DNA of 64,000 nt from Naegleria gruberi (lineage: Eukaryota). The position numbers and the translations under genes were made by a program. The stretch lies in assembly GCA_000004985.1 (NCBI GenBank), contig GG738884.1, one strand, 5' to 3'. Shown here in pieces: positions 8,401-61,586 of the stretch. Numbering within the stretch: position 1 is the stretch's first letter; the number at the start of each line of letters is the position of its first letter. Under the pieces are notes generated by a model. The model was not told the origin of the DNA and did no database searches. It saw only the letters and a program-made list of their open reading frames with translations.

Positions 8401-11400
8401 TTAATTAGTGCCCCCTCCAACATTATTACTGGAATTATTATTCTTTGATATATATTGATATTCTAATTGGTCACTATCCTTAGATAAATTAGAGTCTGGA
8501 TAACTTTGCTTTTCAGTATTATGAATGTTATGATTACTATTATTATTACTATTTTGTTGAGGGTCATCTTGGCTAACTACATGACCTGCCACCTCGTCTT
8601 CACTTACAACTGCACAAGCATGGTGATGAGCTTTCATCATGTAGGTTGTACATAAGCCTTTTCCTTTCACTTCAACCATTCTTTCTTCAAATTCAAAACC
8701 TAAATCATAAACTCTTTCGTAGGTTGATCGAGAACAGTGGATTCTACCGCCTAAACTTGTACTTTCCATTCTTGAGGCCATATTAATGGTATCACCCCAC
8801 AAATCATAAGCAAACTTCTTGGTACCAATAACACCAGCAACTACACCTCCTGTATTAATACCAACACGAACATTGATTTGATGTCCAAGTGCTTGACGAT
8901 TCTCCAAGTTATAATTTCTCAATACTGCGAAAATATCCATTGCAAATCTGAGAGTTCTTTCAGGGTGATCTGATTGAGTATTACCAATACCACCAACACA
9001 AAAGTAAGCATCACCAATGGTCTTGATCTTTTCCAATTGATACTTGTCTGTGAGTGAGTCAAAACCATTGACCACAGAGTTCAACATCATGACAATTTCA
9101 GTTGGTGTAAGACAACTACTAATAGATGTAAATCCAACCATATCAGAGAAGAAACATGTAATATCATTGAACTTTTCAGCAATGAATGTTTCACCTGATT
9201 TGAGTCTATTGGCAACAGCTTCAGGAAGGATTGAACGAAGGAGATTTTCCGACTTTTTCTTTTCTTCTGCCAACAGGGCATTTTGTTTCTTCTCTGAAGT
9301 GACATCCTTAATAAAGCAAGTGACAACAGGCTTGTTATCAAAGAGTGTTGAGAACAAGTTAATCTTGGCAGGGAATTTGGTATTATTCTTTCTGATACAT
9401 TCCACTTCAATAGTTTCTCCTTGAGCATCAGCATTGGTATTATCCTTTGATGCCTTAATCAAATCATCAATAACTTTACCAAGTGTATCTCTGTTAGAGG
9501 AGTCAAACAAATTGAATAATGGCAAACCAACAAAATCAGTTTGCTTACAGCCAAACATTCTCTGGGCTGCTGGATTAAAAATTTCAATATCACCACGATG
9601 GCTACACAACACGGCACCATCAACAGCAGCATTAAGAATATTCTTCACTTTGGAATCATCATTCTTGGCATTTTCCTTTGTTTCTCTATTCTTGAACATT
9701 GTAATTCTTGAAGGTAATGTATGGTACATGATAAAGTTTCTCATTGTTTCTTCAGAGTCCATCAAATCCAAAGGAATGTAATTGAACATAATTCTCACAT
9801 GGAAAACATTATTCCAATGTGAATCAAATATATTGTAAAGAGCAAAGGAGAATACTAACAACAGCACCGCCCCAACTAGTGAAAAGGCAATAACATATGA
9901 CACTGAAGTTACAGAGAATACTGAAATTAATGTATCCAAGAATACTAACAAACGATCAGTCAGAGCATCTGCCAACACATAGGTTTGCACTTGATTGGAG
10001 AAGAGTTTGAAAGTGGCTGATTTCATTGCAAAAATGTCAGCAGTATTTTCAGATGAAAGTTGAGCATAGATTTCAATCAAATGTTCCAAACCCTTGCATG
10101 AATAAATAGTAGAGTTTGATGTGCAGTTTGTGTCTTGCACCATTGAATCAATCTTTGTAGAGATACCAACACTTGGTAACTTGTTATCTTCAACATTACC
10201 ATAGGCCAGATTATTCCAGCTTGAAACAAGATTTGTTGTGAGTGTTTTCATTTCAGTCTTGTAAGAAATAACATCAGATCCTTCCTTTGATAACTGAGGA
10301 TCATTAATAGCAAGTCCACTTGGTAAGGAAATGTAATTAAATAATTCACCAACGTTGAATGTTGTTCTTTGAATGGATGAGAGAGCTGTTGTTGCTTCCT
10401 TAATATTTAACATGGTACGGTGGGTAGAAATGGTATTGAATGAAGATTCCATGTAGAACATTCCTGAGCACAGAATTGTCACACCCACAATACACAAACC
10501 AATGAGAGCAGCACTCATGTACGGTTTTAGAATTCTCTTTGGTAATTGAATAGAGGCATCATCCACTTCAGATTGCTTTCCTAGGTTATGGTAAATCTTA
10601 CCAATAACATCTTTAGGTACATTCTTTTCCAAGAGTTTAACAAATGTCTTGAGGGAAGAAAAGCTAATTGTTACATAAACCACATAGACAATAGTAAGGA
10701 CACCATAAAGTGAATTGGATGCTAAAAAGTAAATGAAAAAGCTTTGGTCAAGTACTTCCGTTTTTTGTTGAGTTCTGGAAATAAAACTTTGACAAAAAAC
10801 ATCAAAGGCCCCTTGGAATGCATCTTGGTTCAACCACAAGAACATGAATGGATATGAACTGAGCGTGCTATTGTACTCATTTGGTGAGAGGCCTTCAAAA
10901 TATTCTATGTGTTTCATCATTGAGTAGACCATTTGGGAAATCGAGACATTACTTGGGTTAGTATTATTAAAGATACCCAAATCGTTTGGATTTTCAACGT
11001 TTGGAACAACAATTTGCCTGCTAACAGAAATATAATCAGAGTACATCTCTGGTGTGAATAAACCTTTTTGACCCATTACCCTAAGGTCATCAATGAATTG
11101 CTTTGCTTTTGATAACTTTCCTTTCAGCTTGGCAATGAACTCTTCAGTGCTGCTCATATCGAGAGTATGTAATAATTTTAGATTTTCAGATGGGCTGTTC
11201 TTGTAGAGATTCAAGTAGGTTTGTTGTAAACGAATATCTCTCAATGCAAGAAGAGGGACCATTCTTGGCTTGCATGCACTTTGCACTGCCTTAATATCAC
11301 TTAATACCAAGCTTGAAATAACAGAGTCCCATATTATACCTGATGCCAATAGTAAGAAAGAAGCAATAACGAAAATTAAAAAGGAAAGTAGCTGAACATT

Positions 11401-13587
11401 ATGTTGCTGAGGAGTAGCAAGCGATGATCTGAGAATACTTTCTCTCTTCAGTTGAGGATTGTTTTCAACGCCATCCATTCTTTGAGATCCAAGATCAAAT
11501 TCCGAGGCTCTTTCGAATGGTTCATCTGGATCATCAAATTCATTAAAATCAGCTGTTGAAGCAATATTATTACCCTTCTTGATACCAAATGAGAAGGTTT
11601 TACCTCCTGCTTCAGAGAATTTGGTCGAAGATGGAGGTGGATTGTCATCAAATGAAAAGTTTGGAACTATACGATTCTTCTTACTAGCTCCCTTTTTCAA
11701 ATTTGGTCTGAACTTCATTTTGGCTTCTTCATCTTCAATAGCCATAGCTTCTTGGAAGAGCTCTTGAGCAAATTCCTTATTGAATTTGAATTTTTCCACA
11801 TAAGATGCATAGTAACGAAGGACAGTCTTGTTATTTCTATGCTTGGCTATCAAATTTTGGAATGTTGATTCACACTCTGACATTAATTCGGAAGCTCTAG
11901 TGTTGGTTTGCTCAATCTTGTCAAAATTGATGATATCATTGGTCATTTCCTTCCAAAAAGCTCTGTGCAATGCTGCTAATTCGGACTGATTCTTCTCCAT
12001 TCTTTGCAAGAAGAATTTCAATTCGTATGGATTAGAGTTGTCAATCATTTCAAATTCCTTTTCTCTTTCAGAAATTAAGAATTTGTATAAAAAGTTTGGC
12101 TTTGCTTTCAGGGCCTTCTTTAAAAGTGATGAGGCAAAGACTTGAGCATTGACTTCATTCTTCCAATAGTAGGAAACAATTAAACTGCATGTAAGCAAGA
12201 GTCGAGAATCATTAAAGCTCTTTTGTAAAGATGCACCCTTAATAAGACTGAGAGCAATTTCTGGATCTGTAATGTCATCACCCTCTGTTCTATTCTTTGA
12301 TTTAAGAGAAAATTTAAAGAAGAGATTCAACTGTTTCAATCTATTATCTTCTTCAAATTCTTGATAGACAAGCTGAGCCTCCTTTTCCAGCATTTTAAGT
12401 GGAAGCTTTTCAGCATCAGCGTTTCCATCATTGCTTCTTCTGAGAATAGAGGATAATGCCTCAGCACGACGAATACTCACCATGAATCTACCTCTGACCT
12501 TTCTATAAATTACCGTCATGTATATTTCCAATCCTGCCATTCCCACCAAGAAACCAGTCATGATCAAACCCAAGGTAAGACCTGCGCCGAGACCAATACC
12601 CAATATGGAATTATCATCTGAATTGACTATTGAAGTTATTAATGCACCAATGGCTGCTCCCAATCTAGCCCCTGCAACACCAAAAACAAAAGAATTTTCA
12701 GTCTTTCTATAGAATGGTAAAAAGTAAAAAATCAAGACCATGAATACAAGTGTGATAGTGATATGTATCACAGATCTAATGTAGGCATATTGCTGAGGTA
12801 CCACATACATTAGCATTAATTGAAGTGGATTAGCAACAGACAAAAAACCCATTGGTATATTATTATCACCAATAAAGTAGCCTCCCTTAGTTTGTTCGGA
12901 TTCTTGTGAAATCATAATTGATAAAAAGTTCAAAATAAGCATTGGTATAAAGGCTATAATCATCAAGACAATGAGGACAATATTACCTGACATGACACAT
13001 GGTGTGGTATTAAATCTCGAGAGAACATAAATCTGTTCATCATAATTACTAATTGTGTGTAAAGCACTTGTATCACAATCAATAAAGGATGTAAATATAA
13101 AAGTCATTATCATACTAAGAACTTGAATAATATTTCCTAGTGTGGTGGCAGCCTTCTTGTAACGATCTAATTGTTTGCTAGATCGAAAGATTGCATGTAA
13201 GGCAAGGAAGAAACTCACCACTCCACAAGCTATTAACAAAAAGCTTGCTGCTCCAAGTGCTGCAATAGCACCAAAAGGTAAAAGGTGGAATGAAAGTGTT
13301 ATTGGATAATTAATAACTGTGAATAACCATTCTCCATATTCTCCCCAATTATAAGAACCTAGTGTTGGAAGAAATATAGAGACCCAAAATATGTACAAGT
13401 AGTATATTATAGACAGAGTTTTCCTTTTCCATCCATATTGCTTAACTTCGGATGATTCCATCGAAATCACAAACTTTGTAAAGCCCTCCTGTATCTTTAA
13501 CCATACTGATGCATAGAGTGAGGAACCTCCAGATGACTCTGATGAAACATTTGAACCTAGGGCAGAACCTTCATGATTTTGGTCCAT
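8401..13587 (-). CDS. Multi-pass membrane class III adenylyl cyclase with a PAS domain and a single C-terminal cyclase homology domain (1728 aa)
   Basis: Single uninterrupted ORF. There are hydrophobic TM clusters in the N-terminal ~400 aa and again at ~aa 700-1150. A PAS-like segment (AAVDGAVLCSHRGDIEIFNPAAQRMFG...) lies at about nt 9360-9720. The cyclase domain at about nt 8640-9240 carries both metal Asp (FFSDMVGFT, IGDAYF), transition-state N/R (GINTG...ASRMES) and substrate-specifying Lys (EKIKTIGD) and Asp (YDLWGD), giving ATP specificity in a homodimer-type cyclase homology domain. Confidence 0.9.
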   Translation of the reverse strand: MDQNHEGSALGSNVSSESSGGSSLYASVWLKIQEGFTKFVISMESSEVKQYGWKRKTLSIIYYLYIFWVSIFLPTLGSYNWGEYGEWLFTVINYPITLSFHLLPFGAIAALGAASFLLIACGVVSFFLALHAIFRSSKQLDRYKKAATTLGNIIQVLSMIMTFIFTSFIDCDTSALHTISNYDEQIYVLSRFNTTPCVMSGNIVLIVLMIIAFIPMLILNFLSIMISQESEQTKGGYFIGDNNIPMGFLSVANPLQLMLMYVVPQQYAYIRSVIHITITLVFMVLIFYFLPFYRKTENSFVFGVAGARLGAAIGALITSIVNSDDNSILGIGLGAGLTLGLIMTGFLVGMAGLEIYMTVIYRKVRGRFMVSIRRAEALSSILRRSNDGNADAEKLPLKMLEKEAQLVYQEFEEDNRLKQLNLFFKFSLKSKNRTEGDDITDPEIALSLIKGASLQKSFNDSRLLLTCSLIVSYYWKNEVNAQVFASSLLKKALKAKPNFLYKFLISEREKEFEMIDNSNPYELKFFLQRMEKNQSELAALHRAFWKEMTNDIINFDKIEQTNTRASELMSECESTFQNLIAKHRNNKTVLRYYASYVEKFKFNKEFAQELFQEAMAIEDEEAKMKFRPNLKKGASKKNRIVPNFSFDDNPPPSSTKFSEAGGKTFSFGIKKGNNIASTADFNEFDDPDEPFERASEFDLGSQRMDGVENNPQLKRESILRSSLATPQQHNVQLLSFLIFVIASFLLLASGIIWDSVISSLVLSDIKAVQSACKPRMVPLLALRDIRLQQTYLNLYKNSPSENLKLLHTLDMSSTEEFIAKLKGKLSKAKQFIDDLRVMGQKGLFTPEMYSDYISVSRQIVVPNVENPNDLGIFNNTNPSNVSISQMVYSMMKHIEYFEGLSPNEYNSTLSSYPFMFLWLNQDAFQGAFDVFCQSFISRTQQKTEVLDQSFFIYFLASNSLYGVLTIVYVVYVTISFSSLKTFVKLLEKNVPKDVIGKIYHNLGKQSEVDDASIQLPKRILKPYMSAALIGLCIVGVTILCSGMFYMESSFNTISTHRTMLNIKEATTALSSIQRTTFNVGELFNYISLPSGLAINDPQLSKEGSDVISYKTEMKTLTTNLVSSWNNLAYGNVEDNKLPSVGISTKIDSMVQDTNCTSNSTIYSCKGLEHLIEIYAQLSSENTADIFAMKSATFKLFSNQVQTYVLADALTDRLLVFLDTLISVFSVTSVSYVIAFSLVGAVLLLVFSFALYNIFDSHWNNVFHVRIMFNYIPLDLMDSEETMRNFIMYHTLPSRITMFKNRETKENAKNDDSKVKNILNAAVDGAVLCSHRGDIEIFNPAAQRMFGCKQTDFVGLPLFNLFDSSNRDTLGKVIDDLIKASKDNTNADAQGETIEVECIRKNNTKFPAKINLFSTLFDNKPVVTCFIKDVTSEKKQNALLAEEKKKSENLLRSILPEAVANRLKSGETFIAEKFNDITCFFSDMVGFTSISSCLTPTEIVMMLNSVVNGFDSLTDKYQLEKIKTIGDAYFCVGGIGNTQSDHPERTLRFAMDIFAVLRNYNLENRQALGHQINVRVGINTGGVVAGVIGTKKFAYDLWGDTINMASRMESTSLGGRIHCSRSTYERVYDLGFEFEERMVEVKGKGLCTTYMMKAHHHACAVVSEDEVAGHVVSQDDPQQNSNNNSNHNIHNTEKQSYPDSNLSKDSDQLEYQYISKNNNSSNNVGGGTN

Positions 13588-17610: not shown

Positions 17611-19683
17611 TTATTGAACAGAACATCCCGTTTGTTGAGATTGGGCAATTTGCCTACAGATTGACAATAAAACTCTTAATCTTTCCTTAGTATTGGTAAT
17701 TGAAAGCAAGTCAAGTTTGAGTTGTGTTGTGAGAGGAAGCATGGCACTCACCCAAAAACTCAACTTTTCTGGTTCGTTTTCCTTTGGGAATGGTCCAATC
17801 TTTTGGAGAATGGCTTGCTTGGTTTCGTCACCAACTTCCATCATGAAAGTCTCAACCATCATGTAGAGTTGGTCATGTAATTGTTGGAGAGACAATCTCT
17901 CTGCTTGACGCCACACATTGGTTTGCAATTCAGCCAATGATGCAAAGGAGGTGAGGGGAATATTAGAACTAGCACCTGAATTGAGTGTTTCAGATTGTTG
18001 CTGCTGGCCATTGTTACCATTATTAGTAGTACTATTATTCGAGGATGAGCTCACAACAGCAGAAATAGTATCCCTATTTCTTTGAGAATTCTCAATGACA
18101 GATATTTCATTTTCAGTCTTATCTTTGAGAATTTGAACTTTGGCACAAATATATCCATCAGTGTCCCACTTTTCCAGAATTTTGAATCGTTCAGTACCAA
18201 CTGTCTCAATGATACTTCTACCATCTGGCAACATTTTAAAGCTCGTAATCTTGGCAATACACCCATACTTGGCAATGTCACCATTTCTATTGGGTCCACA
18301 ACAAACCAATCCAAAGCATTTACTTCCACTCATACATCTTCTCATCATGAGTCGATATCTTGGTTCAAAAATGTGCAATGGTAGTACGGTATGTGGATAG
18401 AGTACAAAGTCTAATACAAAGATTGGAATGTGATTCACATTGAGTTGTCTTGTCCCAACCTCTTCTTCCATTTCCTTCTTTCTCTCTTCGTATTGAGCTT
18501 TACAATACTTTTGACAGAGTTCATTAATAACCACAGTAATTGGATAATCGTATGGCACCACGTGAATGGTCTGTCTACACAGTGGACACTTATCACTATA
18601 ATCGTGCACTCTACAAATGCAACTTCTATCAAACGTATGTCCACAACTCAACGTTACAGGTTCATAGAATACTCTGTAACAAAGTGGACACTCAAGCTCT
18701 TCACAATCCTCGCTGAAATCATAGACAGTATTCGTTCTCTTTCTCTCAGTAACATCTTGATCCAAGGTTGGTTCTTCTTCTTGCTGTTGGAGTTTGGCCA
18801 ATCGTTCCTGTTCCTCCCTGTACATTTTGTCTTGAATTTGTTTTTCAAGTTGAGCTACATATCTATTGGCAGTATCATTTTGTGGATCATTTTGGAAGAT
18901 TGTCTTTAAATCTCTCTCAGCTTCTTGTTCCAGTTGCATTGGTAAAAGCATTTCAACCTTTTTCAAGAGTACACTAATCAATTGTGAACGAACTGCATAA
19001 ATTGTATCATTGATTTGCCTTAATCTTTCCTGATCGTGATAGAAAGTTTGCTGGAAATTCTTAATATCATCAAAGAATTGAAACTTTAGTTTGGATTCTC
19101 GTGTTTTCTGTAATAACTGATCTTGCTGACCCATCAAATCTTCTAAATGAGTTTGAAAATTCTTTGCCTTATTAGCCAACAATGAAAGAGCCTGATGTGG
19201 TTTCCTCTCTCTCACAAAACCATTCACTCGTTCCATAAATTGTTTCATCTCCTCTGGAGTCATTACAAAAAAGAATAGTTCATTATTAGAATTCAACACT
19301 TGCTTTTCTTCTTCTTGTCCTGAATTGTTGTTGTGCTGTTGAATTTTGGCATTGTTTTCATGTTGGGAGAGACATGAATCATGAGAAACTATTGTATCAT
19401 GATTATTATTGTAATGTTGATGAGGATTTACAGAGTGTTGATGATGTTGTTGTTGATTGGTGGAGGAAGTACTATAGGAACAATTGGTTGTTGGTGAATG
19501 TTGTTGTTGTTGTTGTTGGTCTTGTTGATTGGTAGAAGTAGAATTGTTATTAGGAGAGGATGTGGAAGAATAACCTCCATGATAGGCTTGATTATTGTTG
19601 CCATCATTCGGAGAGTTGCAATGTTCTTGTTGCTGATTAAAATTCATCATGCGTTGTTGATACTGCTGATTGTTATTATTCAT
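17611..19683 (-). CDS. LONRF-type E3 ligase: Q/N-rich N-terminus, C3HC4 RING finger and LON N-terminal substrate-binding domain
   Basis: RING finger: ECPLCYRVFYEPVTLSCGHTFDRSCICRVHDYSDKCPLCRQ. LON-N domain: IPIFVLDFVLYPHTVLPLHIFEPRYRLMM...GCIAKITSF...GRSIIETVGTERFKI. The N-terminal 140 aa are poly-Q/N/H/S. Confidence 0.8.
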   Translation of the reverse strand: MNNNNQQYQQRMMNFNQQQEHCNSPNDGNNNQAYHGGYSSTSSPNNNSTSTNQQDQQQQQQHSPTTNCSYSTSSTNQQQHHQHSVNPHQHYNNNHDTIVSHDSCLSQHENNAKIQQHNNNSGQEEEKQVLNSNNELFFFVMTPEEMKQFMERVNGFVRERKPHQALSLLANKAKNFQTHLEDLMGQQDQLLQKTRESKLKFQFFDDIKNFQQTFYHDQERLRQINDTIYAVRSQLISVLLKKVEMLLPMQLEQEAERDLKTIFQNDPQNDTANRYVAQLEKQIQDKMYREEQERLAKLQQQEEEPTLDQDVTERKRTNTVYDFSEDCEELECPLCYRVFYEPVTLSCGHTFDRSCICRVHDYSDKCPLCRQTIHVVPYDYPITVVINELCQKYCKAQYEERKKEMEEEVGTRQLNVNHIPIFVLDFVLYPHTVLPLHIFEPRYRLMMRRCMSGSKCFGLVCCGPNRNGDIAKYGCIAKITSFKMLPDGRSIIETVGTERFKILEKWDTDGYICAKVQILKDKTENEISVIENSQRNRDTISAVVSSSSNNSTTNNGNNGQQQQSETLNSGASSNIPLTSFASLAELQTNVWRQAERLSLQQLHDQLYMMVETFMMEVGDETKQAILQKIGPFPKENEPEKLSFWVSAMLPLTTQLKLDLLSITNTKERLRVLLSICRQIAQSQQTGCSVQ

Positions 19684-46657: not shown

Positions 46658-48415
46658 ATGGATATACTCAAAGCCAAACTCAATCCTCAACATGCTGGCA
46701 TGCTGCTTAGAGACCAGGTGTTAAAAACAGACAAGGAATGGAATGTCCTCCCATCAGATTCGAATAACATTCCTTACTATTTCTTCTGGTTGATGAATCC
46801 TGATAATCAAGCAGCCGCTCAACTGCAACATCGCTTACTCATCAAACAAGCAACTACTCCACAAGAACTCTCTTATAACTCTCTATTAGAAACTCTAAAC
46901 GATAGAGATGACATTTACCATGATGAACAAGATTGGTTTCAGAGAGAATTATACGATTTAGATGTTCAGAAGGAGAATCTCAATGAATACTTTTACTACT
47001 TTCAAAAGCATACGACTAAGAGTATGTTGAAGGTGCATGAAAACGTTCATGATAGATGGGCACAGTTTTCTCGAGTGGTTAGGGAACCAACAGCAAACGA
47101 AAGTCAACTAAACATATTCGAAACCTCAAAATTCACTCCCATGCAAAGTATGAATAATAGATCCCACTTTATTGTTGCGCTGAAGATATTGGACACTGAA
47201 TATCATGCACAGAATCCTACAATGCCACCAAAATATAACTCTGTTGGTCATGTTGCCTTCTCTGTAAAAGATCTATACATTGATGGGAAAGTTTACAAAG
47301 TTGGGTTGGCTGGTTCTGGATGGTGTGCTCAGAAATACCGTACCCAATGTCCATCTATCAAGTTTAGTGCATGGTTTATGAAGATTCTAATGATGATTCA
47401 CATGAATATTCGTTACTGCTATGCCCATGTCTTTGCTGAAAATTCGAAAAGTTTCGGTTACATTGCAAAGAGTGGAATGGCTGCAACAAGATTTCGTTTA
47501 AAGTATTTAGGTTTCAATTTGAGTTTAGAAGATCATGTCAACATTTCTTCCTTTGACTCTCAAAAACAATTGCAAAACAAGGCAACTCCTCAATTGACCG
47601 ATCTTCACAAGGTCCAATCTTTGGAAGAATACAAAACTCTGATGGACAAAATCTATGGGAAATCCAATTTCCTCATCACACACTTGGACAACATCTTTTA
47701 CCATCCATTCTTTGCTGGATGTTTCATTGACGAGAAGGCACAAGCTTCCTTCCAAGTATGGAAATGTAAATATGCCACCGATCAAAAGACAAACACTCAA
47801 ATTCCAGCATTCATCATCTTTAACACTGTACATTTATCACAATGTGATATTCCACTCACTTCTCAACAAGGTGATCAACTCATGCACTCCATTCGTGAGT
47901 CACTCATTCCACAACTTGTCAAACAAGATACCAAACTTGTCAATTTAGCATTTGCCACTCATGGCGGATCCATTTATCAATATCTATTGAGAAATTACTC
48001 CCATTTAGAGAGTATTTCATTTGCCTCATTGTACTATACCTTTCAGGATAACTTTAAATTGGCTGGCTTGACTAAGAGAGCTCAGCAAACATCTCTTGAT
48101 CCAGTTTCGAAATTCCTCATGCCATCTCAACAAGATTCTAATGAAGAAGAAGCAACAGGTCAACAAGAACAACATATGGAGAGGAATCTCTTTTTGGATA
48201 TCAGAGATTGCACTGGTAAGCCAATGGTATGGTCGGAGGAAATTAAGGAAACTGAGATGGCCACAATCAAACATGTTTCATTGTCTGCATCTGGCATTGT
48301 TGATAGAACAGCAAGACTTGCTGATCAATTGGCTACTAGTAAGAGTACTCCTCCTCCTCCAATTGCTGTATCTTCTCCATTCACTTCACATTCATTGTTT
48401 GCCTCCAAATTGTAA
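46658..48415 (+). CDS. Hypothetical protein, 585 aa
   Basis: ORF with ATG at 46658 and a C-terminal PPPP/S-rich tail. No domain recognised from the sequence. Confidence 0.5.
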   Translation: MDILKAKLNPQHAGMLLRDQVLKTDKEWNVLPSDSNNIPYYFFWLMNPDNQAAAQLQHRLLIKQATTPQELSYNSLLETLNDRDDIYHDEQDWFQRELYDLDVQKENLNEYFYYFQKHTTKSMLKVHENVHDRWAQFSRVVREPTANESQLNIFETSKFTPMQSMNNRSHFIVALKILDTEYHAQNPTMPPKYNSVGHVAFSVKDLYIDGKVYKVGLAGSGWCAQKYRTQCPSIKFSAWFMKILMMIHMNIRYCYAHVFAENSKSFGYIAKSGMAATRFRLKYLGFNLSLEDHVNISSFDSQKQLQNKATPQLTDLHKVQSLEEYKTLMDKIYGKSNFLITHLDNIFYHPFFAGCFIDEKAQASFQVWKCKYATDQKTNTQIPAFIIFNTVHLSQCDIPLTSQQGDQLMHSIRESLIPQLVKQDTKLVNLAFATHGGSIYQYLLRNYSHLESISFASLYYTFQDNFKLAGLTKRAQQTSLDPVSKFLMPSQQDSNEEEATGQQEQHMERNLFLDIRDCTGKPMVWSEEIKETEMATIKHVSLSASGIVDRTARLADQLATSKSTPPPPIAVSSPFTSHSLFASKL

Positions 48416-53339: not shown

Positions 53340-54290
53340 TGTAAAGGTCAACTTTAAATGTTCTGGTTGACCTTCCAAGGATGTGTGGTGGCATCCAGAT
53401 TAGAAAGTATTAGAAACTTCTTAAGCATGGATATCTAGATATGGAAAGCGAATATTTCTATAAATGCATTTTTGTATGAGCAACTTGGGAAAGTGAAGAT
53501 ACGATACAACGAAACTGTAATGATACGTTTGTATGCCACGTCTGGAGATTGGCTTCGCACATGATTTTAAGCAATTTGGCAAAACAACTTTTTTGTGTTT
53601 TAAAGTGCTTTATTTTGAAACAACACAAGAAATCAAACAACAATCTTTTGATAATTAGCTGAAGATTGAGCCAACTTTGAAATCTTTTCAAATAACATCA
53701 AGTCTTTATTCAATAATTGCCAAATCCTTAAAATTTTCATCTCACGATCTGGCAATTTCTGCAAACTAGTTGAGAATAGGTTTAGTTTAGTCTTGTCCAC
53801 CTTCTATTTCAGTATTTTGTTGAAACACTGAAAACCGCTACATATCCATCTCCACTAATTTTAAAAATCTAGTCATCAAATATGGAATATTTAAAAATCT
53901 CTATATAAAACCCTTCCTTTACTTATTGGCGATCGCTACAATGCAATTCCTTAATAGCTTTATTCGAAACTTAGAAAGTCTTTATAGCCAAGCTTCAAAC
54001 ACTATCAAAAAAACATTCAAACTGGTTTAGAGCATTTGTTCAGTCTTTAATTCAACGTTTCGTACAAAATAGACAGCTTACTTTAATTTATTAGAAACTC
54101 CAAGCTAACCTAAAGGTTTCGAATACTTCATCCCTCCTATTTCAAATTTACTTCCTCGATCAGTCAATAAGAAACTTGGTCATTGTACATTTCAGATAAG
54201 CTGTTATCTAAAAGAAATTTAATATTTATGTAGATTGCTGACAAGTTGCTTATTTGGAAACACCTAATTTATCTAAAACAACATTTTGCA

Positions 54291-55151
54291 ATGTGTCTTC
54301 ACACCCAGAAAAAAATGTCAAGTCCTTCAACCTCAGTTTCGAATAATTTGGTTTCGTCTGGTTCATTTCACTTTCACAATTTTGATCCAAAAGCAAATGA
54401 AGAGAAGAAACGATTGAATAGAGAAATGATTGCAAAGAATACACATAATGGAATGGCATTTAAACCAAGCAAGTATATGGTTGATATTCAACATTCGAAT
54501 AATAATCAAAGACAAGTTTCACCTGCATCTCCAGTTTCGTATAGAACAAGCCGATCAAATTCTTCTTCGAACAAGTCTGCTGCTAAAACGATTAGCAATT
54601 CTCATTCATCGATTTCCAAACAACACAAGCTACTTTCGAATAATCACCAATACTCTAAGAGTAGAATCTGTGAGAAACAACTGACCATTAATGCTTCTGA
54701 ATGGAACTCCATCAAGCAATCTATTGAATCAAGAAGCAGAAATGTTTCTAATTGTTCAAATTCAAGCACTCTAAGCAAATCTAGTTGTTACATTGACAAA
54801 AACTCTGTAAATGGTGATTATTCGAAAGGTTTCGTAAATTGCCCGTCCAACCGTAACTATTCAAGCAACTACCAAGTCTATTCTCCTCTGGCTCACTACT
54901 CTGAATACTCTCAAAATATATCACTAAGCAACACATCAAATCTGCCAAGTCAATTATCAATCAGCAAAACTATTCCACTAACCAGTTCAATATCACCAAA
55001 TAATGTCCCGTTCACCCGCTCCATGGCCACTCATTGTGAAAGATTACCCTCCATTCAACATTTACTTGAAACTATTCCAATAACAAAATTCGAAAGACGA
55101 AACAATAGTCAATTAAACACAGTTTCAATAATTGAATTGTTGAAACAATAA
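54291..55151 (+). CDS. Ser/Asn-rich hypothetical protein, tandem paralog A (shares a conserved N-proximal motif with 55372..56064)
   Basis: First ATG is at 54291. Motif: FHNFDPKANEEKKRLNREMIAKNTHNGMAFKPSKY. The rest is S/N-rich low complexity. Confidence 0.5.
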   Translation: MCLHTQKKMSSPSTSVSNNLVSSGSFHFHNFDPKANEEKKRLNREMIAKNTHNGMAFKPSKYMVDIQHSNNNQRQVSPASPVSYRTSRSNSSSNKSAAKTISNSHSSISKQHKLLSNNHQYSKSRICEKQLTINASEWNSIKQSIESRSRNVSNCSNSSTLSKSSCYIDKNSVNGDYSKGFVNCPSNRNYSSNYQVYSPLAHYSEYSQNISLSNTSNLPSQLSISKTIPLTSSISPNNVPFTRSMATHCERLPSIQHLLETIPITKFERRNNSQLNTVSIIELLKQ

Positions 55152-55371
55152 ATGTCATGAATTAAATTGCCTTCAAAAGATGTTAACTCTGCATAACATT
55201 AAAATTTGGAAAACCAAGATTTCCCTTCCTGCCAAGTTGTCATTCCCAAAATGGACAATTAAAAAAGTTGAAAGGCCAGTTACAGAGATAAATGCCGACG
55301 CATCTTTTATCGAATTGGTAACATCATACTAACATGAAGTGGTTTGTTTTGCATCAAAAAAAACAAAAGAA

Positions 55372-56064
55372 ATGCAACAAGACAGTCCTCGTCAAGTTTT
55401 GAATGCAAATTGTAATTATTCAAGCTCAACTGTTGTGAGTAGAAGGAAGGGAAGGGGAACGTCTGGAAAATGTAGTGGAATGATGGAGAGTCATCATTTG
55501 GTTTCGAATAATAATCCATGGTTGAGGTTTCATTCTTATGATCCAGTTGAACATGAAGAAAAGAAGAGAAAGTTGAGAGAATACTCAAAACGAAACGCAT
55601 ACAAGGGTTTACACTTTAGACCAAGCAAGTATAATCAAGAGGTAGTTAAATTTTCAGTACAAGCTCCTAACATGTTGAGTGAGCAGAATCTAACAGAAAG
55701 GTCTGTATTAAAAGTTGATGAGAAGGCATGTAGTGCACATCAAGTGATCACCAACTCAAAGATACCACTCACTCATTTTCAAGTTTCTTCCATTATTCAG
55801 TTGGAATCGAATAGCTTAATTTCAACAACAAACAACATCCAAGCACCAACCGCCTCCAAATCAACATGCATTCAATTCACCCATCAAAACTCTAGAAACG
55901 TTCTTCCCTCCATAAATGAAATACTATCTCTCTCCAAAATTCAAAAAGCACCACACAAAATGATTCACAACTCATCTCTCCAAATCATCCAACAAAACTC
56001 AATCAATTCTGACAATTTTCAATTGGAAAATCTAACTCTTGCACCAATCAACATGTACTTCTAA
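55372..56064 (+). CDS. Ser/Asn-rich hypothetical protein, tandem paralog B
   Basis: First in-frame ATG is at 55372. Motif: RFHSYDPVEHEEKKRKLREYSKRNAYKGLHFRPSKY, the same F-x-x-DP-x3-EEKKR-x-REx-x3-N-x3-G-x-F-(K/R)-PSKY pattern as its upstream neighbour. Confidence 0.5.
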   Translation: MQQDSPRQVLNANCNYSSSTVVSRRKGRGTSGKCSGMMESHHLVSNNNPWLRFHSYDPVEHEEKKRKLREYSKRNAYKGLHFRPSKYNQEVVKFSVQAPNMLSEQNLTERSVLKVDEKACSAHQVITNSKIPLTHFQVSSIIQLESNSLISTTNNIQAPTASKSTCIQFTHQNSRNVLPSINEILSLSKIQKAPHKMIHNSSLQIIQQNSINSDNFQLENLTLAPINMYF

Positions 56065-56208: not shown

Positions 56209-58140
56209 ATGGGAAAGAGAGAATTATACAGAAATAAACAAGCTTTGGCTAATGCTGCTCCTCTGGCTCAAGCACACTCCCAACCGCTTGGTATTACCAT
56301 CGGAGCACGTACATCTAATGTAAAGATGCCTAAGGAGGCCATTCCAGCCATCTATTATGAAAAGATTTTAAAATACATGAAAACAAAGGAAATGTTGAAT
56401 GATATTGCAGGAGCTTGCACTAAATATTTGTACAAACCATCGGATTGGAAGTATTATTACTTTGAACATCGTTGGAAGGAATATTCTAACGTGAGAAGAG
56501 CCTTGCGTAAATTAATTCAAATGGGAACACTTCAAGTCTTGTTGAGAGGAAAGTATTATAAGGAAGAGACTTCTGATCCAGAAGCTATTACAAGTGGTGG
56601 TGCCTCTTCTTCTACTGATAATAATCAATCAGCTGATGCTAGTAATGTTGCTTCCGAAGAAGTTTTACAAGTAAAAGAAGAAGAATTTGAAACTTTTGTA
56701 ATTGGAGGAAGAACATTAACTAGAAAAAAGTATGTAAAGGCTTCTTCTGTGCCATCGAATAAGAAGGCCACCACTCCAGTTGATCAAGAGGAAATTCAAA
56801 TTGAAGAAGAAGAAACAATTAATCAACAAGCAATGAATAAGAAGAATAAGAAGAAGAATAAGAAAAACAAAAAGAAGGATCCTTTTGAATTGGATGAGGA
56901 AAATGATGATCAAGATGATGGAACTTTTGATGGATTTGAAATTACCAGAGATGAGGATCGTCCACAATTATATGAATTGAATGAATGGAAAGATGATCCA
57001 AAGAAGAATAAGAAACAAAATAAGAAACAAAACAAAAAGCAAAGTTCTAGTTTGGAAATTGAAGAAGATACTTTTGTAAAGGAAGAAGAAGGTGGTGATA
57101 AGGGAATTCCTTCTAAAGCTGTACATATTGATTTTAATAATATCAAAAAGATTGTAAAGGCAACTGAAAAGATTGATTGTGCTGAAAATGAAGCAGTTCA
57201 GAATATTACTCTCAACTTGACAAGAAAATCAAAGGAAGAATCATCCAGCTCTCAGAAAACTGTGATTCAGGTTGTTAAAGGTGACATGTTGGAAACTGCA
57301 ATTAGTTTGAGAAGGATTTGTAAACTTAATCCACTCGTTTTGGTCTCTGGTAGCCAAACTGTTCCAGGAGGATCTTTTGCTAAGGGAGGAAATACTCAAG
57401 AGGAAGATTTCTGTAGAAGATCATCATTGTCTTTAGCAATTGCTGATCCATACAGATTTGATGAAACTAGAGAGTGGACTTACCCATTACCTGAATTTGG
57501 AGGAATTTATACACCAAATGTTGTAGTGTTAAGAGGTCCAAAGAGCGATGGATATGCCTTCTTGGATAGAACATGGGCTTGCTCAATGTTTATCACCTAT
57601 CCTTATGTGAATCCACCAACAGAGAAGAGAAAGGTAGCCGATCCAAATACTGTCATTCCAAATGAAGAGGACGATGACGAAGAAGTAACAACTGAGAATT
57701 TCCTCTCTACCAAATTGTCCAACTCAATGAAGAAGAAGATTGCTGCCTACTTTGATGTTGCATTAAAGAAGGGTCATGATTCTCTTGTTATTGGTGCTCT
57801 TGGTTGTGAAAATACTCACTCCAATCCTGCCTATCATATTGCTCAACTTTTCAAGGAAGTATTGGCAAGTGAAATTTTCAAGGACAAGTTCAAGGTTGTC
57901 ATTTTCTCTATTTTGGTTGATAAGGAAACTGATAGCAAGTTGGCCAATGAAGGTGGTGCTGACGATGTGGAAGAAGTTGAGGATAATGATGACGTCGAAG
58001 ATCAACAAGATATCTCAACCAATCTGCTCGATACTTCAATTGAAAGAAAGAATAATCTTTCAGTATTTTCCAAATTATTCCACGGAAAGGAAGAAGCTCC
58101 AACAGCTGAAGAATTCATTCCAACCATTGAATGTAAATAA
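56209..58140 (+). CDS. Bacterial-type poly(ADP-ribose) glycohydrolase (DUF2263/TIGR02452 macrodomain) with an N-terminal unknown domain and a K/N/E-rich linker
   Basis: The C-terminal 300 aa carry the PARG catalytic signature GGG-X6-8-QEE (LVLVSGSQTVPGGSFAKGGNTQEEDFCRRSSLSLAI) and the second conserved block LVIGALGCENTHSNPAYHIAQLFKEVL. The linker contains NKKNKKKNKKNKKKD and KKNKKQNKKQNKKQ repeats. Confidence 0.65.
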   Translation: MGKRELYRNKQALANAAPLAQAHSQPLGITIGARTSNVKMPKEAIPAIYYEKILKYMKTKEMLNDIAGACTKYLYKPSDWKYYYFEHRWKEYSNVRRALRKLIQMGTLQVLLRGKYYKEETSDPEAITSGGASSSTDNNQSADASNVASEEVLQVKEEEFETFVIGGRTLTRKKYVKASSVPSNKKATTPVDQEEIQIEEEETINQQAMNKKNKKKNKKNKKKDPFELDEENDDQDDGTFDGFEITRDEDRPQLYELNEWKDDPKKNKKQNKKQNKKQSSSLEIEEDTFVKEEEGGDKGIPSKAVHIDFNNIKKIVKATEKIDCAENEAVQNITLNLTRKSKEESSSSQKTVIQVVKGDMLETAISLRRICKLNPLVLVSGSQTVPGGSFAKGGNTQEEDFCRRSSLSLAIADPYRFDETREWTYPLPEFGGIYTPNVVVLRGPKSDGYAFLDRTWACSMFITYPYVNPPTEKRKVADPNTVIPNEEDDDEEVTTENFLSTKLSNSMKKKIAAYFDVALKKGHDSLVIGALGCENTHSNPAYHIAQLFKEVLASEIFKDKFKVVIFSILVDKETDSKLANEGGADDVEEVEDNDDVEDQQDISTNLLDTSIERKNNLSVFSKLFHGKEEAPTAEEFIPTIECK

Positions 58141-58258: not shown

Positions 58259-59131
58259 TTAATTACTCTTGTCTGATTCTTCGCTCTTCTTGGCATTCTT
58301 GATGAGCCATTGTAAAGTCTTGTCAATATTTACAGAATTTTTAGCACTAATTGAGTAGCAAGATACTTCTCGTCCAGTAATAAGTTTGAGATCCAATTTG
58401 TCAATTAATTCTTGTACACCTCTAGCATTTGGTAAATCATTCTTATTTCCAAGTACCAGTAAAGGAATAGTCGAAAGAGAGGCTTTTCCAACCAATTCAT
58501 GAAGCTCCTTTTTGGCTACTTCCAATGTTTGTTCATCACTTGCAGAGTCCACAACATATACAATAGCTCCAACTCCTCTACAATATCTCTGTGTTTTTTG
58601 AAATGTAATATTATAACAATCATAATATTAGATAGAATGTGATGACAACAAGTATGAAATTAAAATTAAATATATTACGTTCATATCAAATACATACCTC
58701 CCACATGTTTCTGAATTTGGATTGACCTATTATTGTCAATTTAAATCATCGTTAGTATCATGATAATCCAAAGTTATTAGAAAAATATTAAATGATTAGA
58801 ATAACAATTTGTCATCACAGTTGAACAACATATGATGGACCATCATCATAGTTAATAGTGATGATTATAATAATAAATAATTGAATAGTTTTCAAAAGAA
58901 TGACATACCTCCGATATCCCACAACTTGATTTCTACACCTCCTTTACTCACTTTTCGCATATTAAAGCCAATAGTTGGTATAGTATCCTCATTCATCTGA
59001 CCAAATGAAATTGTATTTACAAGTGTCGTTTTACCAGCATTTTGCAATCCGACCAATGTAAGTTCCAACTCTTGCTTCCAGAAGAGTGATTTAATCCAAT
59101 CCATCAATGATTTCAAAGCTGCTGCTAACAT
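58259..59131 (-). CDS. ARL8: ARF-like small GTPase ARL8. Three exons: 59131..58909, 58726..58698 (a 29-nt micro-exon), 58588..58259.
   Basis: Spliced product: [75 protein letters not shown]|QSKFRNMWE|[20 protein letters not shown]...[12 protein letters not shown]...[20 protein letters not shown]. This closely parallels ARL8 ([14 protein letters not shown]...IPTVGFNMRK...[20 protein letters not shown]...GNKRDLPNAL...CYSISCKE..NIDITLQWL). Both donors are GTATGT. Confidence 0.85.
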
Positions 59132-59531: not shown

Positions 59532-61586
59532 ATGGGACAAAACCATTCAGGTGGATCAAATTCTGTGGGTGGAATGGGAGGAACACTAGTTGGAGATCAA
59601 TACAAACCACCAGATCGTACCACAAACAATCTAGCTTCCTCCTTTCATACCAAAGAATCCATCAAAATTCAACAGCAGCAACAACAACAACCCGATTCAA
59701 ATACAAACAACAATAATACATCGTCAGGTAATCTTGTTCTGATAGCAGCATCCAACACTTCCGATGCCTTGCTCATGTCCATCGCAGAGTTAGTCATTGT
59801 TCTCCAACAATTGGGTGAGATTCATCTCGTTGTCTTGCTGGAGGAAATTTCTCGTCACTACTACGAGATTCAAATTGGAGGCAATTTTTCTTCTCTGGAA
59901 GCAATTGCTGCTGCTAACAATAACACACAAGGAAATGGCGCCACTTCTCCAACACAAAATTTACAGGGTGGTGGCCCTCTCGCCAGTACATCATTTAAAA
60001 ATGGCGCCACTGGAAATTATGGCAACTCGAATGTAGATAATGGTCTGAAGAAGTACATTAATTGTGCCAAGTATACTCCCACTTGGTTGGAAGATGAGGG
60101 TGTATTTGGAGGTGGTGGTGGTATCGGAAGTGGATCGATTGGTAGAGGGAGTAGAATTAGTATTGGAGCAACATCAGGAAATAATGGCATGGATGAAGAT
60201 GATATGGAGGAGGATTATGGTGTAAATTATAATACGGATTCTGCTTTTCAGGTCTGGTTGATTGCATTGAAGGATAGACAATTACCGAGATTTAAGAGAA
60301 AATTGGAAAAGTTATTTGTGGATAATAGTGGAGGAGCAAGGAAGGTTGCCTTCTCTTTCAATGTACAAATGTCAACCTCATCGACAAATAGTTTGAGAAG
60401 AGCTTCTTCATTCCTACACGCACAAACTAATCCAAAAACTAATTATGTCATTGATATGGATAGTAAGCAGAAATATTTTGAGGTGAGGTCAGAGATGGAA
60501 ATTATTCTCACTCATACTCTTGAGGAAATTAAAGATTTGAAAGAATGTTTGGATGCAAAGAGAAAAATCGAAGGAGGAACATCAAGTACCAGTGGAGCTG
60601 ATGTTGCCGATGTTTCGGTTCTCCTTCAAGATTTTGATTTTGAATGTAGTTGGTGGGAGAAGAAGATTGGCTCCTCCAATTTCAGTGTCAAGAAGAAGGC
60701 ATTTATTGATGCCATTGAAGAAACTTTTGCTCACTTGAAAGTCAAGTTTGAAATTGAGGTTTTGGAAGAGATTTCAGATCCAACTTGTGATGGAGTTGTA
60801 AGTGTGACAGATTTGAAAACTCTCACTAGATGGTTGGGCAGTATTTACAAGTGGAATACTGACGAATTGAAATTGAGAAATATTGCTGGAAAAGAAGATG
60901 CTGCACCAGTTATTTTCCTTCCTCATTTTTGGGGTTCAGTGACATGTTACGATGCACAAGATATTTTACAAAAGGAAGAACCTGGAACGTACATTATTCG
61001 TTTCAATGAGAACGAGCCTGGGCATTACTACATTTCATGTGTTCAGGAAAATGTTGTGGAAAATGAGGAGACTAGCTCAAATACTGGATTTTTTGCCACT
61101 CGTCAAGTGTATCACTTTGTATTGAAGAGAGGAAAAACTGAGAAGGGAGAACCTTACTATTACTTGTCCGATGCTGATAAGAGTCACAAATTCAAGACCA
61201 TTACTGAGCTACTTGATAAGAATTACTTTTTGACATTCAAATATCCATATGTCAATGACGATCTCAAGTCTGCATTTGTTTCAAAGAAGAGAGATGTCGA
61301 TGTCTTTGGTGCATTGAAGAGTTTATCAGGAGAGGGTGATGATTTGAATCCTTATCCATTTGTTGTATATAAGGGAAAGTTCAATGTTAATGAAAAGAAG
61401 AAGGAATCAGACATGAAAAAGATTGCCAATTTAGCTAAAAAGACTACTGAGCCGTCATTGGGCAATCCAGTCAATAATAATTCATCCTCAAGCATTAAAG
61501 ATCAAGAACCAGGTATGGTACGAGTGGATTCCCTCAATTTACCACTGAGTAATAGCAAGGAAGAAACTTTAGATTTATCTGAATAA
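59532..61586 (+). CDS. SH2-domain protein with an N-myristoylation motif and a Q/N/G-rich N-terminal half (possibly STAT-linker/SH2-like)
   Basis: Starts MGQNHSG (Gly2, Ser6). SH2 signature near aa 470-520: FWGSVTCYDAQDILQKEEPGTYIIRFNENEPGHYYISCV (W-x-G, FLVR-type Arg). No kinase or phosphatase domain is present. Confidence 0.6.
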   Translation: MGQNHSGGSNSVGGMGGTLVGDQYKPPDRTTNNLASSFHTKESIKIQQQQQQQPDSNTNNNNTSSGNLVLIAASNTSDALLMSIAELVIVLQQLGEIHLVVLLEEISRHYYEIQIGGNFSSLEAIAAANNNTQGNGATSPTQNLQGGGPLASTSFKNGATGNYGNSNVDNGLKKYINCAKYTPTWLEDEGVFGGGGGIGSGSIGRGSRISIGATSGNNGMDEDDMEEDYGVNYNTDSAFQVWLIALKDRQLPRFKRKLEKLFVDNSGGARKVAFSFNVQMSTSSTNSLRRASSFLHAQTNPKTNYVIDMDSKQKYFEVRSEMEIILTHTLEEIKDLKECLDAKRKIEGGTSSTSGADVADVSVLLQDFDFECSWWEKKIGSSNFSVKKKAFIDAIEETFAHLKVKFEIEVLEEISDPTCDGVVSVTDLKTLTRWLGSIYKWNTDELKLRNIAGKEDAAPVIFLPHFWGSVTCYDAQDILQKEEPGTYIIRFNENEPGHYYISCVQENVVENEETSSNTGFFATRQVYHFVLKRGKTEKGEPYYYLSDADKSHKFKTITELLDKNYFLTFKYPYVNDDLKSAFVSKKRDVDVFGALKSLSGEGDDLNPYPFVVYKGKFNVNEKKKESDMKKIANLAKKTTEPSLGNPVNNNSSSSIKDQEPGMVRVDSLNLPLSNSKEETLDLSE

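Follow-up and report, generated by a model that had tools for sequence, protein, structure and literature searches.

A bacterial-type PARG paralogue of Naegleria gruberi whose catalytic domain appears to be split by low-complexity inserts

Among the described relatives of the protein considered here, which is encoded in a 64,000-nucleotide stretch of contig GG738884.1 of Naegleria gruberi (henceforth, the window), are the bacterial-type poly(ADP-ribose) glycohydrolases (PARGs) of Thermomonospora curvata (TcPARG; structures 3SIG/3SIH) and Deinococcus radiodurans (DrPARG; 5ZDA-5ZDG). A bacterial-type PARG consists of a macrodomain and a small N-terminal helical extension that stabilizes the catalytic loop (PMC4030884). 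Both glutamates of the QEE motif are essential (PMC4030884, PMC6445106), among them E112 of DrPARG (PMC6445106). The second glycine of the catalytic signature, which is Gly101 in DrPARG, has been implicated in binding the n-1 unit, and the backbone of the diphosphate-binding loop binds pyrophosphate (PMC4030884, PMC6445106). A phenylalanine in this loop puts strain on the ribose and so favors the oxocarbenium state (PMC4030884), and a short "ribose-cap" loop close to the C-terminus governs exo versus endo binding, limiting the enzyme to the exo-glycohydrolase mode (PMC6445106). In eukaryotes, bacterial-type PARGs are found in all supergroups except Plantae, and N. gruberi was reported to have up to seven of them, only three with the complete GGG-X6-8-QEE signature and the others with partial signatures (Perina et al. 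2014, PMC4245714).

The gene that we analyzed is the following:

56209..58140, plus strand: intronless open reading frame (ORF) of 643 residues plus a stop codon, encoding a bacterial-type PARG paralogue (from the list of ORFs and from full-length orthologues)

A preliminary description, made from the sequence alone, had read the product as a multidomain protein in which a bacterial-type PARG domain, possibly acquired horizontally, follows an unrelated N-terminal domain of ~190 residues and a long linker of K/N/E repeats. We propose instead, with a probability of roughly 0.62, that it is a single catalytic unit that is split by inserts and that it is probably an active, E398/E399-dependent hydrolase with modified substrate handling.

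Family assignment and domain architecture

The protein belongs to the bacterial-type PARGs (the microbial family DUF2263/PF10021), as the preliminary description had recognized. PF10021 (PARG_cat_microb) matches residues 317-442 with 64.8 bits (cut-off 23.5, E = 1.5e-17), and TIGR02452 matches residues 316-572 with 79.3 bits (cut-off 50, E = 3.3e-22, profile positions 17-255 of 266). Bacterial PARG structures in the PDB were matched by sequence too, and a profile search recovered DrPARG and TcPARG at E values of about 1e-42 to 1e-40. A Pfam search of the 643-residue protein at E <= 1 returned PF10021 only, with no match to the catalytic domain of canonical PARGs.

The predicted structure agrees with this assignment. 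Our model of the core comes from an AlphaFold2 (AF2) run with a multiple sequence alignment of 49 sequences; an earlier run with 6 sequences had a mean predicted local distance difference test score (pLDDT) of 42.6 and was unusable. With 49 sequences, pLDDT was mostly above 90 over residues ~305-570 and 612-640, and it was 35-67 over the conserved N-terminal block (the N-block). The best matches of the model in the PDB, by Foldseek, were TcPARG (3sih/3sig, E = 4.5e-13, TM-target 0.66) and DrPARG (5zd*, TM-target 0.69-0.72). Generic macrodomains (MacroD, macroH2A, YmdB) had E values of about 1e-5, or about 7 orders of magnitude weaker. The parts of the protein that are needed for the argument below are:

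57103..57930, plus strand: PARG macrodomain core, residues 299-574 (PF10021, TIGR02452, AF2 with pLDDT mostly >90, and Foldseek)
56284..56490, plus strand: N-terminal extension, residues 26-94, PLGI..GARTS..KPPKE.IP..YEKILKY..., with three predicted helices; lineage-specific
56491..56559, plus strand: putative PARG accessory helix alpha1, residues 95-117, RRALRKLIQMGTLQVLLRGKYY; positions 4-14 of PF10021 fall on residues 107-117
56560..57102, plus strand: insert 1, residues 118-298, a K/E/D/N-rich low-complexity loop with two lysine tracts that appears to split the catalytic domain
58045..58137, plus strand: PARG C-terminal helices, residues 613-643, beginning NNLSVFSKLFHGKEE..., with pLDDT of 83-97 and helices modelled to residue 640

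The protein shares with the bacterial enzymes the macrodomain fold, the profile matches, and the QEE positions, and like them it has a helical accessory element at its N-terminus and a conserved phenylalanine in a C-terminal helix. It differs from them in size (643 residues versus ~250-290), and the bacterial domain is uninterrupted whereas this one has a 181-residue insert after alpha1, an acidic loop of ~20 residues, and a 38-residue insert in the ribose cap. Also, the bacterial enzymes have GGG and GCG[AV][FY] where this protein has GGS and GCENTH, and it has an additional N-terminal extension of ~70 residues. Canonical eukaryotic PARGs (human or Tetrahymena) use the same logic of a QEE catalytic loop on a macrodomain, and their N-terminal helical accessory element is likewise thought to stabilize the catalytic loop (PMC4030884). 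Their accessory domain is large, in contrast to the small and sequence-unrelated accessory part of this protein, in which we identified no tyrosine clasp.

Conservation of the N-terminal region is confined to residues ~26-117. Residues 118-190, the remainder of the supposed ~190-residue domain, are variable and are mostly missing from the orthologues. Within the conserved block, residues 95-117 are the best-conserved stretch of the whole protein (78-87% identity to orthologues), and they appear to be the N-terminal accessory element of bacterial-type PARGs. First, in three relatives that lack the insert (P0048, P0050, and P0053), the Pfam PARG match begins within the N-block, at profile position 3-4. 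It starts on the T of "T[IV][ED].[CF]L[RK]G[RK]Y", which is homologous to T107 in "TLQVLLRGKYY" of the window protein. Second, an in-register deletion of residues 118-298 moved the start of the Pfam match from residue 317 (position 16) to T107 (position 4) and raised the PF10021 score from 64.8 to 68.4 bits. Third, once both inserts were deleted, BLASTP aligned the protein end to end with the 293-residue single-domain PARG P0006 (residues 23-291, E = 1e-36). This alignment runs from T107/T23 to the C-terminal "NLSVFSKLF"/"NLEPFKQVF", and PF10021 position 4 falls on T23 of P0006. At the other end of the domain, removal of insert 2 (described below) let the C-terminal helix match the family profile up to position 331 of 335. 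F620 in the C-terminal helices is nearly invariant across the family, and the aligned counterpart of this segment in canonical PARGs is their C-terminal GN[FL]..F motif.

Residues 107-117, and probably 95-117, would thus be part of the PARG catalytic domain, so the N-terminal block is not "unrelated" to what follows it. In this protein, the single unit would comprise the core (residues 299-574), the accessory helix (95-117), and the C-terminal helices (613-640). The evidence for the split is sequence-based and sensitive to register, yet it is consistent. A full-length MAFFT alignment misplaces alpha1 relative to the canonical PARGs because of the insert. A comparison of the N-terminal 101 residues of P0006 with PDB sequences gave no match, and it provided no sequence link between alpha1 and the N-terminal helix of TcPARG.

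A true multidomain protein, with an independent N-terminal domain of ~190 residues, a linker, and a recently transferred bacterial PARG domain, seems very improbable to us. In its favor, the N-block has no Pfam match, and AF2 did not confidently dock it on the core. However, the N-block was not found with other domain partners. A profile of the N-block, searched exhaustively with HMMER against 1.84 billion cluster representatives (E <= 1e-3), matched 17 proteins. All true hits of full length have the N-block in front of PF10021; the other matches are short fragments or truncated models. The named matches are all from Heterolobosea (Naegleria, Willaertia, and Acrasis). Among the full-length matches, none has the N-block alone or with a partner other than PARG, except for P0046, which is likely spurious. 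Also against a separate domain are the equivalence of its C-terminal helix to PF10021 positions 4-14, the alignment of that helix with the N-terminus of single-domain PARGs, and the lack of conservation in residues 118-190. We consider the multidomain model to be largely refuted, and we return to its claim of recent transfer below.

The part of the N-block before alpha1, residues 26-94, has no matching Pfam family. It is 57-67% identical to its orthologues. Structure prediction, which the preliminary description had suggested for the N-terminal region, gave three helices there, at low confidence. This extension is seen only together with PF10021, and most likely it enlarges the accessory element that buttresses the catalytic loop in bacterial PARGs.

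The single match to the extension that is not a PARG, P0046, is a metagenomic protein of 807 residues with at least 8 HTH_3 repeats. It matches the N-block profile six times, at profile positions 20-60 (E = 9.4e-9), by virtue of a resemblance between its "IPKELYEKYLNFF..KENYNKD" and "IPAIYYEKILKYMKTKEMLND" in the window protein. The resemblance is probably due to chance, amplified by the repeats.

Insert 1 accounts for the K/N/E repeats of the preliminary description, which are indeed K/E/N-rich low-complexity sequence with short tandem repeats in the DNA. Its 181 residues are 15% K, 15% E, 9% D, and 8% N, its identity to orthologues is 28-42%, and it is disordered (pLDDT below 50) in both AF2 models. 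The DNA repeats, at 56835-56877 and 57007-57043, encode the lysine tracts NKKNKKKNKKNKKK and KKNKKQNKKQNKKQ (residues 209-223 and 265-278). The insert at this site varies in length from 0 residues in P0048, P0050, and P0053 to ~40-60 in P0049 and the sister orthogroup and 181 in the window protein. One part of it is conserved:

56914..56994, plus strand: acidic-aromatic motif within insert 1, residues 236-262, DDGTFDGFEITRDEDRPQLYELNEWKD, 67-78% identical in three Naegleria-type orthologues

The motif has the pattern DDGTFDGFEI.R.ED...LYELNEWKD, with variable linker around it and a lysine tract on each side, and it may be a short linear interaction motif. The lysine tracts resemble nuclear localization signals (NLS) and suggest that the protein is targeted to the nucleus. 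Vertebrate PARGs have comparable regulatory low-complexity or NLS regions appended to them.

In protist proteins more generally, a single catalytic domain can be broken up by long inserts of low complexity. This calls for caution in annotation because the N-terminal piece then mimics an unknown domain and profile hidden Markov models (HMMs) give a truncated match.

Catalytic and substrate-contact loops

Three elements of the core and its C-terminal end are expected to contact the substrate:

57364..57405, plus strand: catalytic loop, residues 386-399, P-G-G-S-FAKGGNT-Q-E-E (49-sequence alignment)
57796..57828, plus strand: diphosphate-binding loop, residues 530-540, GALGCENTHSN (canonical form GALGCGAF.N)
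57931..58044, plus strand: insert 2, residues 575-612, an acidic loop of low complexity where bacterial PARGs have their ribose cap

The catalytic loop, P386-G387-G388-S389-FAKGGNT-Q397-E398-E399, has the form GGS-X7-QEE and not GGG-X8-QEE as first described. Q397-E398-E399 are aligned with the catalytic QEE of DrPARG and TcPARG, so the glutamates are on the catalytic positions, as the preliminary description had supposed. In the alignment of 49 sequences, there is no variation at G388 (the equivalent of Gly101 of DrPARG), Q397, or E398 and almost none at E399; the paralogue P0042 has QED at this site. At the third glycine of the signature, the orthogroup of the window protein consistently has S, A, D, or T, and in some orthologues the first glycine is alanine. 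The fungal and metagenomic sequences nearly all have G at the third position, and so does the sister orthogroup apart from P0041, which has K.

The second conserved block that had been noticed is present in altered form. In the diphosphate loop, GALGCENTHSNP takes the place of the family's GALGCG[AV][FY].NP, with one extra residue and with histidine at the position of the aromatic Phe or Tyr. The change is kept throughout the orthogroup as GC[EDG][NG][TSA]H.

Insert 2 has 38 residues, 24% D and 16% E, with a net charge of -14 and a pLDDT of 52-58. It lies directly upstream of N616, which aligns with T267 of DrPARG, and this places it in the ribose-cap loop. Another acidic loop, of ~20 residues (476-496), interrupts the second half of the domain. 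Taken with the change from G to S and the replacement of the loop Phe by His with an insertion, the modified ribose cap gives the impression of a remodelled active-site periphery that is conserved within the orthogroup while the catalytic glutamates are retained. The enzyme would probably differ from canonical bacterial PARGs in rate or substrate preference.

If the protein acts as a PARG, its macrodomain cleft would bind the terminal ADP-ribose, and E398/E399 would carry out acid/base hydrolysis of the ribose-ribose (2'-OH to C1'') O-glycosidic bond with release of ADP-ribose. Poly(ADP-ribose) (PAR) made by poly(ADP-ribose) polymerases (PARPs) would be reversed in this way, and PARPs have been reported in N. 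gruberi (PMC4245714). The catalytic activity is an inference, and given the degenerate signature (GGS and GCENTH), it should not be assumed.

Several observations weigh against an active, insert-split PARG. The protein has neither the strict GGG-X6-8-QEE signature, in that its third glycine is replaced, nor G-C-G-[AV]-[FY] with its aromatic residue in the diphosphate loop, and it could therefore be weakly active or inactive. Perina et al. call the function of the partial-signature variants speculative (PMC4245714). As for the split, a deletion whose register was off by one residue left the Pfam and TIGR02452 matches unextended, and alpha1 was missed by an HMM made from canonical PARGs of fungal and metagenomic origin because the N-termini of the fungal proteins are different. 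Because AF2 gave the N-block a pLDDT of 35-67, the packing of alpha1 and the N-terminal extension on the core is argued from sequence homology. Finally, nuclear localization is deduced solely from the lysine tracts.

Some of these points suggest another possibility, which we think improbable: a PARG-like macrodomain with impaired catalysis, serving as a reader of ADP-ribose or PAR, or as a scaffold. This would fit with the GGS, with the doubts of Perina et al. about such variants, and with the QED of P0042. It would also fit with the longer diphosphate loop and the replacement of its phenylalanine, given the role of that residue in straining the ribose (PMC4030884). However, both glutamates and G388 are conserved across the divergence of Naegleria and Willaertia, which would not be expected if catalysis were dispensable. 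Also, the core is 51-66% identical to its orthologues, which points to clear purifying selection. An active hydrolase remains our preferred reading.

Paralogues, origin, and possible substrates

Orthologues and paralogues of the protein are present in N. fowleri, N. lovaniensis, Willaertia magna, and Acrasis kona. (In UniProt, the orthologues are entered as "Microbial-type PARG catalytic domain-containing protein".) In a neighbour-joining tree from 233 core columns, the proteins with an N-block form one clade with two orthogroups, although the deeper nodes are weak (36-38%). The first orthogroup contains the window protein and its relatives from N. lovaniensis, N. fowleri (005265 and 008054), and Willaertia (003597), which have the long insert and the remodelled loops; the Naegleria subclade within it has 83% bootstrap support. 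The second contains N. gruberi XP_002681414.1 (P0069), N. fowleri FDP41_000498, and Willaertia 006664. Members of the second orthogroup keep GC-GAY and, except for P0041 (GGK), GGG, and their insert 1 is shorter, at ~45-60 residues. These other heterolobosean paralogues share the N-terminal extension, alpha1, and the PARG core with the window protein.

The closest sequences from outside Heterolobosea are at most 33% identical. The closest of these that are named are fungal PF10021 proteins (from Bipolaris, Histoplasma, Blastomyces, Podospora, and others; 24-31% identity), which have GGGW...QEE, GCGAF, and the N-terminal helix VAAETKAVLP, and which lack the heterolobosean N-terminal extension and the long inserts.

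This distribution bears on the proposed horizontal acquisition and on the multidomain model that includes it. The distribution of bacterial-type PARGs in eukaryotes is regarded as patchy and prone to horizontal gene transfer (PMC8120803, PMC11833690), which would favor a transfer. However, a recent transfer from bacteria to this lineage is not supported because the GC content of the gene region (0.357) matches that of the window (0.31-0.37) and because the relatives outside Heterolobosea are so distant. The gene also has low-complexity inserts of eukaryotic style. As several N-block paralogues are found across Naegleria, Willaertia, and Acrasis, any transfer would be older than the diversification of these genera. 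The gene may have entered an early heterolobosean by an ancient transfer, or its origin may be earlier still.

The existence of two orthogroups with different loops raises the question of substrate. It is tentatively possible that the protein is an ADP-ribosyl hydrolase whose specificity has shifted so that it does not mainly degrade PAR, the QEE having been retargeted to another 2'-OH/C1'' or phosphate-linked adduct of ADP-ribose. An example would be RNA or DNA that was ADP-ribosylated by toxins of prey bacteria, in which case the family of about seven genes might serve partly in detoxification or immunity. All three substrate-contact elements are altered and conserved in the orthogroup while the QEE is kept, as such a shift would predict. 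Also, the sister orthogroup retains GGG and GAY in the same genomes, which suggests sub- or neofunctionalization after duplication. There is precedent as well: bacterial-type PARGs hydrolyze the 2'-OH-linked ADP-ribose that RhsP2 attaches to RNA, as well as ADP-ribose on phosphate ends, and protect cells from the toxin (PMC11833690). As bacterial-type PARGs can thus be immunity enzymes, a reading with an altered substrate is plausible. On the other hand, the case is purely inferential. No ADP-ribosyltransferase (ART) or toxin-related genes are linked to the gene in the window, and among the window's ORFs of at least 200 residues we found no PARP, macrodomain, or ART genes. Furthermore, the lysine tracts and the PARPs of N. 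gruberi are equally compatible with an ordinary nuclear role in PAR turnover.

A fungal protein may be relevant here. P0067 from Jimgerdemannia flammicorona (685 residues) is a fusion of a bacterial-type PARG to an RRM domain (PF10021 + PF00076), which is in line with RNA as a substrate in this family. The fusion is of interest because hydrolysis of RNA-linked ADP-ribose by bacterial-type PARGs was shown recently (PMC11833690).

A more elaborate scenario, which we regard as doubtful, is that after duplication the glycine at the third signature position, the aromatic residue of the diphosphate loop, and the ribose cap (replaced by an acidic insert) were re-engineered together, with the QEE kept, to yield a hydrolase for an adduct other than PAR, such as toxin-made 2'-OH- or phosphate-linked ADP-ribose on RNA or DNA. 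The expansion of the family to about seven genes in this bacteria-eating amoeba would then be an anti-toxin or immunity repertoire and not a housekeeping set for PAR, and the N-terminal extension would be a new kind of accessory module for PARGs.

Whichever substrate is used, bacterial-type PARGs with variant signatures in N. gruberi have already been published (PMC4245714), so our result is incremental and not surprising. In the searchable literature, we found no description of the split-domain architecture, of the heterolobosean N-terminal extension that is exclusive to PARGs, or of coordinated changes to the last signature glycine, the aromatic of the diphosphate loop, and the cap within a single orthogroup. 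These loops and the extension, whose named carriers are all heterolobosean, provide testable leads on why Naegleria keeps about seven bacterial-type PARGs.

Gene model and neighbouring genes

Orthologues from N. lovaniensis, N. fowleri, and Willaertia cover the full length of the ORF with identities of 53-43%. The N. lovaniensis protein is the closest (53% identity, 100% coverage); the others are N. fowleri FDP41_005265, one ENA sequence, and a protein from Willaertia magna. The window protein begins with MGKRELYRNK, and the orthologues share this start (as MG.RE.YRNK) as well as the C-terminus. As both ends are conserved in full-length orthologues, the intronless gene model appears to be sound. 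We rejected the idea that the gene is a pseudogene or an artefact on the grounds of its intact ORF, its conserved ends, and region-specific purifying selection. The ORFs on the opposite strand within 56209..58140 are short and are by-products of the low-complexity sequence.

The exact 643-residue product and seven versions truncated to internal methionines were not found in a collection of 15 billion proteins, in which both neighbouring N. gruberi proteins were found. The deposited gene model may differ from the 643-residue ORF (there is a donor-like GTATGT at 56730), or its entry may have been left out of the collection. The flanking ORFs at 46658-48415 and 59532-61586 are identical to EFC41668.1 and EFC41673.1 of N. 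gruberi NEG-M, which are on a 363-kb scaffold.

Directly upstream of the PARG gene are two tandem S/N-rich ORFs on the plus strand (54246-55151 and 55339-56064) without Pfam matches. They have in common a 48-residue motif, FH.[FY]DP...EEKKR..RE...N..G..F[KR]PSKY (46% identity, E = 5e-10), and are probably a tandem gene duplicate.

Downstream, on the minus strand, 58259-59131 encodes a small GTPase of the Arf/Arl family in two ORF pieces that match positions 5-68 and 91-173 of the Pfam Arf profile. The split implies at least one intron, at ~58553-58891. To our reading, its N-terminal sequence looks Arl8-like. It is followed on the plus strand by the gene at 59532-61586 for a protein with an SH2 domain (Pfam SH2, E = 1.4e-7) that is identical to NAEGRDRAFT_58761. 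Farther away, both on the minus strand, are genes for a 1727-residue protein with PAS and adenylate/guanylate cyclase domains (8401-13587) and for a LONRF-like protein with RING and LON-substrate-binding domains (17611-19683). These two are ordinary Naegleria signaling genes that are unrelated to ADP-ribosylation.

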